This document shows positions 12,614 through 64,000 of a stretch of DNA of 64,000 nucleotides, piece by piece. The translations under genes were made by a program, and so were the position numbers. The stretch spans positions 13,048 to 77,047 of the IMG/VR virus record IMGVR_UViG_3300047160_002455. The stretch is one strand, 5' to 3'. The stretch is from a virus. Lineage: Duplodnaviria; Caudoviricetes. Under the pieces are notes generated by a model. It saw only the letters and a list, made by a program, of their open reading frames with translations. It was not told the DNA's origin and made no database searches. Every line of letters starts with the position of its first letter. The stretch's first letter is position 1.

Positions 12614-13120
12614 ATCCCTTACGTCTACAATTTTCAGTCAAAACAAGTCGCTGAGAACTACGCCACGTCCGGCAGCGGCAACACCGAGATCGACTTTCTG
12701 TTTGTCAAACCCGGTGCAACCCGCGCCGTGGGCTTGCTCGCACTGCGCACCCAAGGCAAGGGTGCTGGTTTGACCGCCCTATCGGGCATTGAAATCCGCA
12801 TCAAGCAATGGATCAGCACGGCAAGCAGCGGCGGTACCGTCACCACCCCTGCGCCAGTCGATAAGCGCGCCCCTGCTGCTGCCGCGTCGATGGGGCAAGG
12901 CGCAGCGGGCGGTACCGGTGCGGTGACTTCGGGCACAGGCGGTCCCAACTATGTCGGTGGTACTGGCATGGGCGCAGCGGGTCCGGGTGGCTGGGTCGCG
13001 CCGAATGTGGACGCGCCGCCCTTCCTTGATGGCGGTGCCACTATGAGTCACGATCTCTTTTCGAGTTCGCCCACAGCGTCGTTGAACTTTGCCTACAACG
13101 GAGAAATCACGGAGAGTTAA
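12614..13120 (+). CDS. putative virion protein with non-canonical ATC start
   Basis: The frame of the listed 12728 ORF is open back to 12611. GAGGT SD at 12604-12608 precedes ATC CCT TAC GTC TAC (xPYVYNF...). Confidence 0.6.
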   Translation: MPYVYNFQSKQVAENYATSGSGNTEIDFLFVKPGATRAVGLLALRTQGKGAGLTALSGIEIRIKQWISTASSGGTVTTPAPVDKRAPAAAASMGQGAAGGTGAVTSGTGGPNYVGGTGMGAAGPGGWVAPNVDAPPFLDGGATMSHDLFSSSPTASLNFAYNGEITES

Positions 13121-57399: not shown

Positions 57400-58458
57400 T
57401 CAAGAGATTTCTGACAAGGCATCCCAACGAATACCTTTGATCGTAGCGCGCGTGTCCAGTCTACGGATGGTCGCTGTCTTTGACCGTCCATCGGTCGCTA
57501 GGATTTCCGCTTCCACTTTGATTTTCCGATTCGTTTTCGGGTTGAGCACATGGTAGTTAGCGACGGCACCCTTTTCCGGTTTCCACGGTACCTCCTGCTC
57601 CAGCTGTTCCTCCGTGCCGCCCTCATTGGTGCCTTGTAGCATTGTAGCAATCTCTGACCAATCCTTCGCGTCGCTAATGTCATCCTCCGTGTATCCAGCG
57701 CTCAATGCCATCGACTTGAGTTCATCCTGCGCGGCGCGGTCCTGATTGTCGGCACGGGTTCCCAGTGCTTCCAGGTTCACCAGGATGTCGCTGTGCTGCT
57801 CCGCGTCGGCAATTGCAGCACCAGACACCATTTCGCGACCGTTCCCGGTGTAGTCCATCGGTCCCGTGGGGTTATCGGGGTTGTAGTCCGCTGCCGCCCC
57901 ATACCAACTTTCAAATACGCGGGGCGTCGGATACTGCTCCGATGGGTCGCCCGCCCGCGTGCCAAATCGGATAAAGGGACCGGCGCGTTCCAATGCTTCG
58001 AGGCGCGTCTGCAGATCCGCTTCGCTCTTGATGCCATGCGTGATTTCGTCACCACCGATGGTCCGCAGATCGTTCAACATCCGCTGGATGTTTTTATCGG
58101 CAGGGGTTATTTCACCAGTCCGCGCCGATTTGGTGGCGCACATCGGGTACATGACCGATGTTTGCAGACCCTTGATAGCGACTTCGCGGCTGCTGACCAC
58201 GCGCACGTCACCATCTTCCCAAACCCGTTGCGTATCGACGGCGCGGGCAGGTTCAAACACGGTTGCTGCCATGCGGACGTAACGCTCGCCCTTGTTCGCG
58301 CCGTCCTTGTAAGTGCCCAGCTTGGCACTCACTAGCTGCGCCACACCACCCGTAATGCCCCCAGGCAGGCGCGTGTAGTCTTGACGCTGTTCTGTGGGAT
58401 CGTCGGCATGAGCCGCCAGAGATGCGTTCAGATTCGACTGACCCTTTTGCATCGGCAT
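57400..58458 (-). CDS. acidic replication/recombination protein (SSB-like by position)
   Basis: 352 aa, acidic C-terminal half, GGAG SD. Co-located with AAA ATPase and nuclease. Function inferred only. Confidence 0.5.
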   Translation of the reverse strand: MPMQKGQSNLNASLAAHADDPTEQRQDYTRLPGGITGGVAQLVSAKLGTYKDGANKGERYVRMAATVFEPARAVDTQRVWEDGDVRVVSSREVAIKGLQTSVMYPMCATKSARTGEITPADKNIQRMLNDLRTIGGDEITHGIKSEADLQTRLEALERAGPFIRFGTRAGDPSEQYPTPRVFESWYGAAADYNPDNPTGPMDYTGNGREMVSGAAIADAEQHSDILVNLEALGTRADNQDRAAQDELKSMALSAGYTEDDISDAKDWSEIATMLQGTNEGGTEEQLEQEVPWKPEKGAVANYHVLNPKTNRKIKVEAEILATDGRSKTATIRRLDTRATIKGIRWDALSEIS

Positions 58459-58482: not shown

Positions 58483-58770
58483 CTATTGAATCACGACACC
58501 AAGGATTTCGTCCTCAATCATGCAAAGGAACTCCCCTTCATCGGCGCGGATTTTCCGCCCGCTGACATCGGCAACGACCTCGACTAAATCCCCTTCTTTC
58601 ACCTGTTTACACTCTGGACCGATGCCGACTACCCGCGCTTTGGTCGGATGCGACATATCCAGTCCAGACTGCGCCGGTAAGACCAGACCCGCTTTCGTCT
58701 TGGTCTCCGTCAACAGTTCCATCAGCACTTTTTTGCCGACAGGTTTGATCCATGCTTTAGCGCGCTCCAT
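58483..58770 (-). CDS. groES: co-chaperonin GroES (Cpn10)
   Basis: IKPVGKKVL...KTKAGLVLP...ARVVGIGP...VKEGD.V...EDEILGVV. Confidence 0.85.
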   Translation of the reverse strand: MERAKAWIKPVGKKVLMELLTETKTKAGLVLPAQSGLDMSHPTKARVVGIGPECKQVKEGDLVEVVADVSGRKIRADEGEFLCMIEDEILGVVIQ

Positions 58771-58786: not shown

Positions 58787-58825
58787 AAAAAAATGCCTCT
58801 CCCCTGTCTCGATTATCGGGGTGGC
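58787..58825 (-). terminator. intrinsic terminator after solitary repeat unit
   Basis: GCC-CCCC...GGGG-GGC stem followed by T7 on the - strand. Confidence 0.55.
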
Positions 58826-58885
58826 TGCCATACCTTGCCACATGATGCCTTTCCCCGACCCACCACAGCGTGCCATACCTCAGAC
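58821..58885 (-). ncRNA. solitary GGY-NN guide-like unit
   Basis: Same anchor (GGCA-GCC) and 11 in-phase pentamers as the large array. Starts at the AAA gene stop codon. Confidence 0.7.
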
Positions 58886-59761
58886 GCTTTCCCCAGCTAT
58901 CAGCTTTATTAGCTTGTGGTAGCTAGGATTGTTGATGCTGTCCGGTAGGACCACGCCATCTGGTAGTCTAAACCCGGTTGCAAAAACCGGATGCGGTCCA
59001 ATTCGCAAGCGGTATTCGATTTTACCAGACTTCTGCGCCATTTTCGTAACCTTGCCAGCGATGGTCATTTCTTGCGTAACGACTTCTTCCGCCACGTATG
59101 CTTGACACAGGTAATCGCAAGCGGTGCTTAACCAGCCGCTGACCGATGGCATCAGCGCCGCGCCAACGCTAGGCACCATTACATCGCTTGCTTGTTCGTC
59201 CATTCCGAAGTTGCGCTCGTGGGAGATGATTATCAGATTCGTGCCGGTGTCCGCCAGGTCGAGAAAATCGCGCAAATGCTTTTTCATCTGCGCCCCGATT
59301 GCCTGCCATTGGCTTTGTTGTGCCATTCCCCAACTGCCTTGCAAGGGAATCTCCTCAAGACCTAGCACCTCCTTTAAGACGATATCCTGCAAACCGCCCG
59401 CATGGTCAAGGCACAGAGAAGCATAGCCGCGCTTAGCGCGGTCGATCAAGGGAGCAATCCAAGCGCTCCGGTTGACCAGAGCAAAGTCTATGCCAATCTC
59501 ACGACCCTGGACCAACAGCGAATAGATGACCGGTCCATCCGGCAGCTGCGCTTTCAGCTTGCGCCCGGTGGCAATGGACTTTGTGCCGTCTTCAGTACCG
59601 ATAATGATTAGTGGTTTGGGGAAGGTAGATGCCAAGCGCGTCTTGCCAACCTTGGCGCGACCGTAGCAGCTTAGCTTGATTCCTAGATCATTCGTGGCAT
59701 GGGTCTGCGGCAGTGGGGGGGGTTTCACCGCCCTTGGGGACTGTTTGGTCACTAGAGGCAT
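58880..59761 (-). CDS. AAA_24 / Sak4-like ATPase
   Basis: YGRAKVGKTRLA (Walker A), LIIIGTEDG, LDHAG, IIISHE. Confidence 0.85.
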   Translation of the reverse strand: MPLVTKQSPRAVKPPPLPQTHATNDLGIKLSCYGRAKVGKTRLASTFPKPLIIIGTEDGTKSIATGRKLKAQLPDGPVIYSLLVQGREIGIDFALVNRSAWIAPLIDRAKRGYASLCLDHAGGLQDIVLKEVLGLEEIPLQGSWGMAQQSQWQAIGAQMKKHLRDFLDLADTGTNLIIISHERNFGMDEQASDVMVPSVGAALMPSVSGWLSTACDYLCQAYVAEEVVTQEMTIAGKVTKMAQKSGKIEYRLRIGPHPVFATGFRLPDGVVLPDSINNPSYHKLIKLIAGESV

Positions 59762-60041
59762 GGGGTCTCTCCATCATTGCCTTTGAAAGCGCCCCCAGTG
59801 CCGCCAGTATCTTCAAGGTTGCCTCGTCCCGGTCGGCAATCTGTTTTACTTCCGCTAGCTGTTTCTCCGTCAGGGGTGGACCAACCGCCCCCTCGCTAGC
59901 AAGCCATTCTTGGCACTGCAGGCATTCCCGCCAGTGTGCGTAGACGATAGCGCGTAACAGCGTCGGCACGTCACCGAAGTTATTGCCGGTGCATACGTCA
60001 CGGAACTCTTGGCACGTCACCTTTTCCCGGTGCATCTCCAT
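59688..60041 (-). CDS. small protein with anti-sigma-type zinc finger (zf-HC2-like)
   Basis: TCQEFRD...AHWRECLQCQEWL (C...HxxxCxxC). Confidence 0.55.
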   Translation of the reverse strand: MEMHREKVTCQEFRDVCTGNNFGDVPTLLRAIVYAHWRECLQCQEWLASEGAVGPPLTEKQLAEVKQIADRDEATLKILAALGALSKAMMERPHASSDQTVPKGGETPPTAADPCHE

Positions 60042-60213
60042 GTCCTCCTGCTGCTCTTAGTTTCGCTTCGTGGACCTCCAGACGATCAATTGTAATCTCT
60101 TTCGGCGCGGTTATGCCCAGCCTCGACATTCCCTGCCGCGCTTCCAGCACCTCAACTCGGATGTTTCCAGCAATTACGATAACCTCACCCACCTGCCGGG
60201 TTAAGACAAGCAT
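59998..60213 (-). CDS. csrA: carbon storage regulator CsrA/RsmA homolog
   Basis: MLVLTRQVGEVIVIAGNIRVEVL...RLGITAPKEITIDRLEV. Confidence 0.9.
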   Translation of the reverse strand: MLVLTRQVGEVIVIAGNIRVEVLEARQGMSRLGITAPKEITIDRLEVHEAKLRAAGGHGDAPGKGDVPRVP

Positions 60214-61422: not shown

Positions 61423-64000
61423 TTAACCCGGCACCCTGCGCTCTCCCGTGACCGCCCAGACGCGCCTAAACCCATCCTAACTAAGCACGACAGAGCACGG
61501 CATGGCTGCCATGTCTGGGCTCGTCTGACCAAAGCAGACCCAGACGCGCCTTACACCTCGACTGCCACACCATACCACGAAACGTCTCACCAAGTCTCAA
61601 CAGACCCCGCCTTGGATGCCGCGCCAGACCAAAACCCGGCTTGCCCCGCCCAGACCTGCCTCGACTGCCACGCCTCACCGGAGCCAAACTCACCCCGGCA
61701 GAACTTGACAAACCCGGACATGGCAGCCTCGACTGACCGCGCCTCTCCTTTCCAGGGCTTACCCGGACTAGACCGCCAGACCAATCCTAACCTGACCGCG
61801 CCTCGACTCTCCATGTCATGACAGGGCAGGACTCGACTGCCTCACCAGACAGGCAACTGTCCATGTCTCGACTCCTCAAGACACACCACAGCAAGCGTCA
61901 TCATGACCGCCTTGCCTCAGCTAAGCTAAACAGGACACAGCTTGACTAAACTGACCATGACCGCCTTACCATAGGTAACCCGGACACACCTGGACAGCCT
62001 AGCCGAACCCAGACATGAAACCATGACTGCCACACCAAGCGCAGACACACCGGACCACTCCTAAACGTGTCTCAGCTTGCCATGACCGCCACGACATACC
62101 CCACCTTAATAAGACTCACCTCGACTCGACAAACCATGTCTGCCGCGCCCCACCCAGCCTGACCGCGTCTCGACTCTCCAGACCATGCCATAACGCGCCA
62201 AGACTGCCGAAACTCACCGTGACATACGCCACCTGTCCTCGTGGCAACATGCCACTCCGTAGCCGGGCAGACCAAACCTCGACTGCCAAGACTTACCTTG
62301 CGACAGCTTGCCAATCCATAGCATACCGCGCCTTAGCGTGACTGCCACAACGGACCATGCCTTGACTCAGCGCAGCTTTCCCTGCCACAGCGCAGATGCC
62401 ACAACACACGAGACCAGTCCCAGACATATCGCGACTCGCGACACCAAGACCGCCGAGCCAAACCCAGACACAGGACTCCGTTCCTTGCCTTAGCCTACCA
62501 TAGCCCTCCATGACTTACCTAACCACACCAGAGCAGCCCAAACTCACCGTGACTTGCCCCGCCGATCCCCGACGTGCGCCGCCGCGCCAGCGAGACCATG
62601 CCTTGCGAAGCCCGACGTAGCCTTACCCGGACACACCTAGACTGCCAAGCCGAAGCTAACGCCGCCTCTCCCGAACCGGACAGACCTCGACACGGCATGA
62701 CTGCCAAGCGTCACCGGACCTCAGCACGGCACACCAAGACAGACCCGGCATTGCCTCGACTGCGCTACCACAACACACCGTGCCTAGCCCAGTCCAGAGC
62801 AACCGAAGCGCGACTGCCAAACCAAGCCAGAACTGACCACCCCGCGCTACACCGTGCATTGCGGTGCCTGAGCAGCGCAGCCAGACCCTGACTCAACCAG
62901 CCTCTTCTTGGCTAGTCACACCAAGTCAGCCTCACCCCGACTTAACTCGACTTGTGAAAGCCGAACCAGGGCAGCCTGACCCGACCTAGCCTTGACCGAT
63001 CCAGACACACCTGAGCGCGACTGGGATACCATGCCTCAACATTCCATGCCGCAACAGGGCTGTCCGAGACTGACCTTGGCATGTCACGACCGCCTAGAGA
63101 AGACACGACCTTCCCAGACGAAACATGCTGCACCACGGCAGCGTTACCGCGCCAGGTCTCAACAGACCATTCCGCGCCAGGGCTCGTGTTGCCCTACCTC
63201 GACTGCCGCGCCAGGTCTGACCGTGACAAAACCCGTCTCTCCAGAACGCGCCACGGCAGCGGTGCCTTACCAAGACTAGACGCTCCTCAACTGCCTAAGC
63301 GCGCCTCTCCTCAACTCACCGAGACAGAACACGGCAGCCTAACCCTGCCAGGGCGGACGTAGCCAGGGATGCCATAACGCGCCTTTCCATGTCATTCCTT
63401 ACCAAGCCGTGCGCCACCGGACCCAGACGCACCATAGCACGCCCAGACCGGACACGACAGCCAGACCATGCGCCAACGGAAGCCAACTCAACTCTCCAGA
63501 CCACAGCGCGACATGGCTGCCACGCCCCGCCGCTGCCCGACGTACCTAGACCAGACTTGACAGCCACAGCTTACCAAGCCGGGACGGAACTCAGCGCAAC
63601 AGAACATAACAAACCTCGACTGCCGTACCCCGCCAAGCCGGAACGGAACTTAACGTAACACGGCATGACAGGACTCACCATGACCGCCATGCGCTGCCAC
63701 GCCTTTCCTTATCGGGATCGTGACATAGCAGACCAGGGCTGCCATAGCTTGCCTTCACACGACTGAGCACAGCTAGCCATGTCTGCCACACCTAACCGGG
63801 GCGGACCTCTCCCAGACTAACCAAGACAGCCTAGCCATGCCTAGACTCTAGGACAGGACTTGCCATAACACACCGTGTCTGCCGCAACCCACCGTACCAG
63901 ACCGCGCCCGGACTCGACTGCCGAACCTGACCCCGCCCGACCCTGCCGGGACGAAACAGAACGCACCGGACCCAGACTGCCGGAACGCACCGGGACAATC
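61423..64000 (-). repeat. array of about 45 GGY-NN pentamer units (putative non-contiguous guide RNA array, VIPR-like); runs off window edge
   Basis: Strict 5-nt periodicity (- strand GGY+NN, with variants GTC/GTT/GCT/GAC/GGA). A 4-nt anchor GGCR/GGCT plus GTC/GCC resets the phase every 6-17 pentamers. No credible ORF. NN positions decode to conserved protein motifs. Confidence 0.92.

Follow-up and report, generated by a model that had tools for sequence, protein, structure and literature searches.

We identify a solitary tract of 11 pentameric repeats, abutting a phage ATPase gene of the AAA_24 family, as the probable gene for a solo vrRNA belonging to a VIPR system, with a guide that would be aimed at the AAA_24 allele of rival phages while sparing the phage's own; we assign this reading a probability of about 0.6. 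The tract (58827-58881, minus strand, read directly from the sequence) lies in a window of 64,000 nucleotides, comprising positions 13,048 to 77,047 of the IMG/VR record IMGVR_UViG_3300047160_002455 (Caudoviricetes), and unprefixed coordinates are those of the window.

VIPR consists of a minimal Cas7-like protein, Vipr, and vrRNAs made of 9 to 16 GGY/NN repeats (bioRxiv 10.64898/2026.04.26.720920). Pairing with double-stranded DNA is through the NN bases and follows a "1-nt skip" rule that passes over every third target base, usually the codon wobble position in natural targets, and the system acts on either strand, needs no PAM, and silences transcription (10.64898/2026.04.26.720920). One Vipr protomer is bound per repeat, and the filament assembles on the guide from 3' to 5' (10.64898/2026.04.26.720927). 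Rival phages and satellites are the targets stressed in the VIPR preprints. The gapped two-letter code that an initial sequence-only reading of this DNA had deduced from the letters turns out to be this published "1-nt skip" code (10.64898/2026.04.26.720920). The code, solo vrRNAs, and self-sparing are all already published, and the system described here is not a new kind.

Anatomy of the solo tract and its neighborhood

The gene abutted by the tract encodes a Sak4-like AAA_24 (RecA-fold) ssDNA-annealing ATPase of 293 aa (58880-59761, minus strand; Pfam PF13479, E = 5e-12; PHROG 124, E = 6e-21). Like the staggered array of this genome, the tract is read on the minus strand, where its pentamers run GA-ggt AT-ggc AC-gct GT-ggt GG-gtc GG-gga AA-ggc AT-cat GT-ggc AA-ggt AT-ggc. 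The resulting guide dinucleotides are GA AT AC GT GG GG AA AT GT AA AT, the first being the GA of the TGA stop codon of the AAA_24 gene (58880-58882, minus strand). The sequence-only reading had described an isolated unit that starts at this stop codon and holds 11 in-phase pentamers, and this description is borne out, with the pentamers extending from 58881 to 58827. The 77-kb genome was scanned on both strands in stretches of 11 pentamers, each pentamer being scored for a G in its third place and a pyrimidine in its fifth; the tract scored 20 of 22, the only score of at least 19 outside the array; unit 8 (CAT) is the one whose scaffold is broken. With its 11 units, the tract falls within the 9 to 16 tandem GGY/NN 5-nt repeats by which vrRNAs are recognized.

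The boundaries of the unit are of uneven quality. The anchor that it was said to share with the array is canonical on the 3' side, where the junction GGC-A-GCC (58823-58829, minus strand, with A-gcc at 58826-58823) fits the array pattern GGC-N-GNY and has the same 4-nt step as the junctions between staggered-array units, whereas the 5' side, AGC-GTC-T, is a degenerate or damaged copy of the junction lying within the final three codons of the AAA_24 gene. The AAA_24 proteins of relatives stop 2 to 4 residues earlier, which indicates that the gene in this phage extends by three codons (ESV) into the degenerate junction AGC-GTC. A terminator belonging to the unit, also part of the original description, is present in outline, as a hairpin (GCC-CCCC / GGGG-GGC) with a 13-nt loop followed by U7 (58787-58825, minus strand, from folding), but it is weak (-11.3 kcal/mol; z = -0.76, which is not significant) and was not called by the terminator scan. 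The tail shows no likeness to the tails of SUSP1 vrRNAs. It may act as a leaky terminator before the next gene, which is Cpn10/GroES-like (58483-58770, minus strand; Pfam PF00166).

The spacer between the AAA_24 and Cpn10 genes measures 110 nt, a length that is equal in all sister contigs, and both the solo unit and its putative target site are identical in two of these contigs (L007 and L008), which are therefore uninformative on variation. Soils in which the phage occurs are represented by the JGI datasets 3300016404, 3300016341, and 3300033289 and by ENA entries ERZ272552xx-272572xx. The AAA-Cpn10 pair is flanked by a conserved gene of 352 aa (57400-58458, minus strand) that belongs to no Pfam or PHROG family. 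A second conserved gene without a Pfam or PHROG family, of ~115 aa (59688-60041, minus strand), overlaps both the start of the AAA gene and a CsrA-family gene of 71 aa (59998-60213, minus strand; PF02599, E = 9e-17).

The staggered array and the search for Vipr

A staggered VIPR array of ~45 vrRNA units, built of NN-GNY pentamers, occupies 61423-64000 (minus strand) and is cut off by the end of the contig. All 17 of its strictly called junctions read GGC-N-GNY (16 of them GNC) and advance by a 4-nt step, and its units comprise 8 to 13 or more pentamers, with degenerate internal units throughout the array. One unit (63621-63684, minus strand) decodes to IDLIVTNPPFGT, which matches an N6_Mtase (PF02384) gene of a Solirubrobacterales MAG (L079:827-861) in frame and at 24 of 24 read bases, the matched segment being motif IV. 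It is the one exact match in 596 Gb of genomes, for which ~0.004 would be expected by chance according to our own estimate. Judged by this match, the VIPR code works in this genome, and at least some of the guides spell consensus motifs of bacterial restriction-modification or defense-type genes. Compared with the phage's own genome, the array guides gave no signal: none of the 36 parsed guides beat its shuffles, and guides of 11 units reached at most 16 of 22. Compared with the loci of relatives, they again gave no signal, save for one long parsed tract that scored marginally above 20 shuffles.

Although rated 100% complete, the 77,047-bp record ends within the array, and it is probably a fragment. 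Neither phmmer nor HMM searches detected a homologue of the SUSP1 Vipr or of the L018-family Vipr (see below) in the 77-kb contig as far as its end within the array. According to its gene list, a near-identical sister contig of 124,996 bp (ENA ERZ27257208) has an array of ~2.98 kb that extends ~320 nt beyond the end of this record. Just upstream of that array, and on the same strand, are unannotated genes of 277 aa and 161 aa, such that the genes met beyond the array encode 161 aa, 277 aa, and then a 513-aa intein-bearing uracil-DNA glycosylase. The order of the 277-aa and 161-aa genes matches the vipr-vap-array order of SUSP1. From this order and from the relative described next, we regard the phage as probably VIPR positive, with vipr and vap just beyond the contig end.

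A relative whose AAA protein is 48% identical to that of this phage (L018; IMG/VR 3300037067_012721) encodes a 224-aa Cas7-fold protein of no Pfam family, with a staggered array of three units immediately after it (L018:155-1040). The array is made of GTT-NN pentamers with GGCAGTT junctions, a T-rich variant of the scaffold that follows the same junction logic. The predicted structure of the 224-aa protein (pLDDT of 85) has Foldseek matches only to Cas7-type RAMPs, namely, Csm3, Cmr4, and type VII Cas7 (E = 2e-5), and a protein search returned more than 500 homologues; comparison of its sequence with those of solved structures yielded noise only. The guides of this relative gave no signal when compared with the present genome.

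The guide and the AAA_24 family

The likeness first noticed between the guide and the adjacent gene is reproduced exactly upon recounting. In codon register and on the coding strand, the guide agrees with the segment EMTIAGKVTKM of the phage's own AAA_24 protein (residues 231-241; 59039-59071, minus strand) at 7 of 11 dinucleotides and 17 of 22 informative bases (77%). Of the five mismatches, which occur in units 4, 5, 8, and 9, four are transitions and three fall in units 8 and 9, near the 3' end of the guide. This near-cognate site is the best match to the guide on either strand of the whole 77-kb genome (the runner-up scores 15). At 77%, it lies below the 80% cut-off used in the VIPR preprints, and when the scaffold-broken unit 8 is disregarded, it stands at 16 of 20, or 80%. 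The sequence-only reading would have been undermined if random units commonly matched the AAA_24 gene at 7 of 11 dinucleotides; among 20,000 permuted units, however, only 0.42% did so, and 0.24% reached at least 17 bases.

A link to the AAA_24 family comes from a profile of 119 AAA_24 homologues, all at most 57% identical to the phage's own protein, which was itself left out. The decoded guide was scored against every 11-column window of the family alignment and attained 16.1 bits exactly at residues 231-241, compared with -2.4 bits at the second-best window. Shuffled guides reach 16.1 bits in 0.12% of trials (P = 0.0012), and none of 5,000 random guides of array composition did so; the real guides of the array score at most 5.5 bits against this profile, and the phage's own segment scores 16.7. 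Since the 16.1-bit fit could be inherited from likeness to self, the four differing units were also scored separately. They encode V, G, I/M, and V, three of the four being the commonest residue of the family at their column, and they contribute +5.1 bits against the profile (P = 0.0007 to 0.0015). The sequence-only reading had called the differences between guide and self conservative; all five are protein compatible, and the differing units are typical of the family.

Decay from a self copy does not produce this pattern readily. Simulated self copies carrying five random substitutions score ~6 ± 4 bits against the profile and retain 16.1 bits in only 0.3 to 0.7% of trials, and this result disfavors the decayed autoregulatory guide that the sequence-only reading had offered as its alternative. 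Together, the profile fit and the family-typical residues of the differing units argue against a chance match as well as against a decayed self guide. A non-coding RNA has no other reason to keep protein-compatible dinucleotides, which suggests that the guide tracks a real coding sequence; we conclude from these comparisons that it most plausibly mirrors a functional AAA_24 allele other than the one that the phage presently carries. In the homologue alignment, the targeted window falls in a variable part of the AAA_24 protein, which would suit a guide that tells close relatives apart rather than one directed at the whole family.

The allele itself did not turn up among sampled sequences. An ortholog carrying the decoded string had been predicted, and none was found: the exact 22-base gapped pattern had 0 matches in viral, metagenome, and genome contigs, and the protein pattern E-[IM]-T-V-G-G-[KN]-[IM]-V-[KN]-[IM] was absent among the best 120 homologues, for which the top class-level match, 7 of 11, equals that of the phage's own protein. 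Likewise, no natural target matching at least 80% of the NN bases under the 1-nt skip rule was found, the best being the own gene at 77%. The 27 relatives that could be aligned at the homologous site agree with the guide at 10 to 16 of 22 bases, and no score above 16 of 22 was obtained anywhere in the loci of 54 relatives. The phage's own gene (17, compared with at most 16) is therefore the closest sampled sequence, which points to a close, unsampled allele. This failed search is weak evidence against such an allele for two reasons. First, the nearest protein outside the phage's own 90% cluster, among 5.8 billion, is 55% identical, and no relative between 57% and 90% identity has been sampled. 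Second, two clearly meaningful guides of the array, which decode to a DEAH box and methylase motif IV, likewise lack an exact match in viral contigs. The claim that the guide is aimed at the ortholog of a related phage while sparing self is accordingly supported in part, and better than the alternative offered with it: the guide fits the family (16.1 bits, P ~ 0.001), and a matching ortholog was not found.

Other candidate targets were rejected. A looser pattern, in which each of the five positions that differ may take the base of either the phage's gene or the guide, had 13 metagenome matches and 1 viral match, 0 of them in AAA_24; we judge these to be chance matches, being unrelated and mostly non-genic, with those at 21 of 22 lying in frames of 24 to 31 codons. 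The segment ETTTGGNALKF, which we take to be the RecA L2 loop, matches the guide at only 15 of 22 bases.

It is unlikely that the tract, as a functional solo vrRNA, is really directed at a host, a satellite, or a decoy site and that its likeness to the neighboring gene is coincidental. A genome-wide maximum of 17 of 22 is reached by 4 to 9% of shuffled guides, a gene with the decoded string is missing from the contigs searched, and the targets of published solo vrRNAs include vipr, other vrRNAs, satellites, and decoys such as REP elements (10.64898/2026.10.15.759431), all of which would agree with a target elsewhere. Coincidence must, however, explain jointly the match to the adjacent gene (p = 0.002), the profile fit at the very same window (P ~ 0.001), and the family-typical differing units (P ~ 0.001), and the looser own-or-guide pattern led to nothing but unrelated, mostly non-genic sites.

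Autoregulation has a similarly slim chance of being correct. Under this explanation, the vrRNA would use its 77% match to bind the AAA_24 gene of the phage itself and throttle transcription into the downstream Cpn10-polymerase operon, for example, late in infection. It gains from the fact that the best match in the genome lies in the adjacent gene, in codon register and 154 nt upstream of the guide, and that this match amounts to 80% if the broken unit 8 goes unread. A self-regulator would nonetheless be expected to match perfectly, and the five differences observed instead are protein compatible and typical of the family, unlike the outcome of selection on a non-coding self-regulator. Moreover, published VIPR surveys, which apply the 80% cut-off, contain no self matches at or above it, and three of the five mismatches occupy units 8 and 9, near the 3' end, at which filament assembly starts in SUSP1.

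We consider it improbable that the tract is a drifting relic, neither produced nor loaded any more, that originated as an array unit since displaced or as a guide once derived from self. Several features have the look of decay (the degenerate 5' junction, the broken scaffold of unit 8, and the weak terminator), and among the loci of 54 relatives, the 27 closest have no solo unit behind the AAA gene, even at lowered thresholds. Against this, the scaffold retains 20 of 22 positions, the 3' junction conforms to that of the array, the simulations reject drift from a self copy (0.3 to 0.7%), and degenerate internal units are normal in vrRNAs according to the VIPR preprints, in addition to being found throughout the array of this phage.

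Finally, it is very improbable that the tract is no guide at all but an RNA element of the AAA-Cpn10 intergenic region (an attenuator or leaky terminator, for instance) or a site bound by CsrA, whose sites are GGA motifs in hairpin loops: the 110-nt spacer does place a hairpin and U7 before the Cpn10 ribosome-binding site, and a CsrA-family gene is close by, but the tract has a single GGA motif, no significant fold (z = -1.24), and no match in Rfam or tRNA scans of the window, and its strict 5-nt phase, array junction, and coding-like NN string would be left unexplained. A CsrA sponge RNA of the CsrB/RsmZ type was rejected on the same features (one GGA, the z score of -1.24, and no Rfam family). 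A TRAP-type site (11 GAG/UAG triplets with 2-nt spacers, fitted to a ring of fixed 11-mer size) was rejected since the triplets here are GGY/GNY and the array units, at 8 to 13 or more pentamers, are not of fixed number. Both ideas were superseded by the published VIPR code.

Proposed mechanism and comparison with published systems

For a solo vrRNA aimed at the AAA_24 allele of rivals, we infer expression, processing, Vipr loading, self-sparing, and the existence of the target allele, which would fit together as follows. The solo vrRNA would be transcribed with the AAA_24 message, or as its 3' end, and released at the GGC-N-GNC junction in the manner of the array units. Vipr protomers, one per pentamer, would then coat it, hiding the GGY and presenting the 11 NN dinucleotides. 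These would pair with double-stranded DNA, at the template strand of a matching AAA_24 gene, skip the codon wobble positions, and block transcription. The predicted target is the orthologous AAA_24 gene of competing relatives or resident prophages, whose AAA-Cpn10-polymerase operon would be blocked. The phage's own allele differs at 5 of the 22 read positions and, being just below the 80% cut-off, is assumed to be spared, an outcome that would be favored by the placement of three of the five mismatches at units 8 and 9, where SUSP1 assembly starts. The position of the guide beside the resistant allele would keep the two linked.

A more speculative extension, to which we give less than even odds, is that the guide and the adjacent gene together make up a cassette, "weapon plus resistant allele", directed against the Sak4-like replication operon of those close relatives that carry a sensitive allele, with adjacency holding the pair together through recombination. 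The phage's own allele would, in that case, have moved away at the bases that the guide reads by means of changes that the protein tolerates. Such a linked arrangement of guide and resistant allele is not described in the VIPR preprints (10.64898/2026.04.26.720920, 10.64898/2026.04.26.720927, and 10.64898/2026.10.15.759431). If true, it would mean that VIPR drives allele-specific warfare and fast evolution of the target segment among sister phages. The cassette would resemble poison-antidote pairs (toxin-antitoxin or gene-drive-like) in linking a harmful guide to a resistant allele; the likeness is one of logic only, there being no toxin protein, and rival killing and self-protection are hypothetical here.

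Solo vrRNAs are known from both satellites and phages and include guides whose match to self is below their match to a rival (10.64898/2026.10.15.759431). In being a stand-alone GGY-NN tract away from the main locus, the present unit is like the solo vrRNAs of SUSP1-family phages and F5 satellites (10.64898/2026.10.15.759431). The published solos, however, sit at vipr-vap1 deletions or on satellites and carry the ~40-nt SUSP1 pseudoknot tail, whereas the present one is located in the replication operon of a soil phage and has the 4-nt-step junction of the array, a hairpin, and U7. It is further unlike them in that its guide spells an allele of the abutting gene and in that the phage also possesses a staggered array of ~45 units.

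That array can be compared with published staggered arrays as they are presented in the legend of fig. S18 (10.64898/2026.04.26.720920), in which the end of each vrRNA doubles as the start of its successor and separate tails are lacking. Both have tail-less successive units with a shared junction, which is a 1-nt overlap in the legend and, at every junction of the present array, a 4-nt step GGC-N-GNC. The GNY scaffold of this array is also looser than GGY. The type II VIPR of SUSP1, an Escherichia phage, comprises a vipr of 195 aa, a vap1 of 146 aa, and four vrRNAs, one of which is set apart. The GGY/NN code is common to both phages, and the order of the 277-aa gene, the 161-aa gene, and the array in the sister contig corresponds to vipr-vap-array. 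Unlike in SUSP1, the units here have no pseudoknot tails, guides are ~10 times more numerous, and many of them spell conserved helicase and methyltransferase motifs rather than satellite genes.

VIPR was described in 2026, mostly from phages of Escherichia and Pseudomonas, and this solo guide from a soil phage adds a clean, testable case, tied statistically to one gene family and to one 11-codon window within it. With a self copy just under the cut-off, it makes the mismatch tolerance of VIPR, in both number and position, directly testable, along with whether guides are kept beside resistant alleles as linked pairs. As a matter of method, the "protein-likeness" of a guide can reveal its target family even when the target is unsampled.

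Two further observations concern the neighborhood of the tract. A sigma-70-like match facing the Cpn10 gene (GTGGCA, an 18-nt spacer, and GATAAT; 58812-58841, minus strand) falls within the solo unit and its tail and is the sole minus-strand match of its kind between 58.4 and 61.5 kb, where 1.9 would be expected by chance. The CsrA-family gene, CsrA being unmentioned in the first VIPR preprint (10.64898/2026.04.26.720920), lies two genes downstream of the VIPR array and 1.1 kb upstream of the tract, and it is conserved in all sister contigs.
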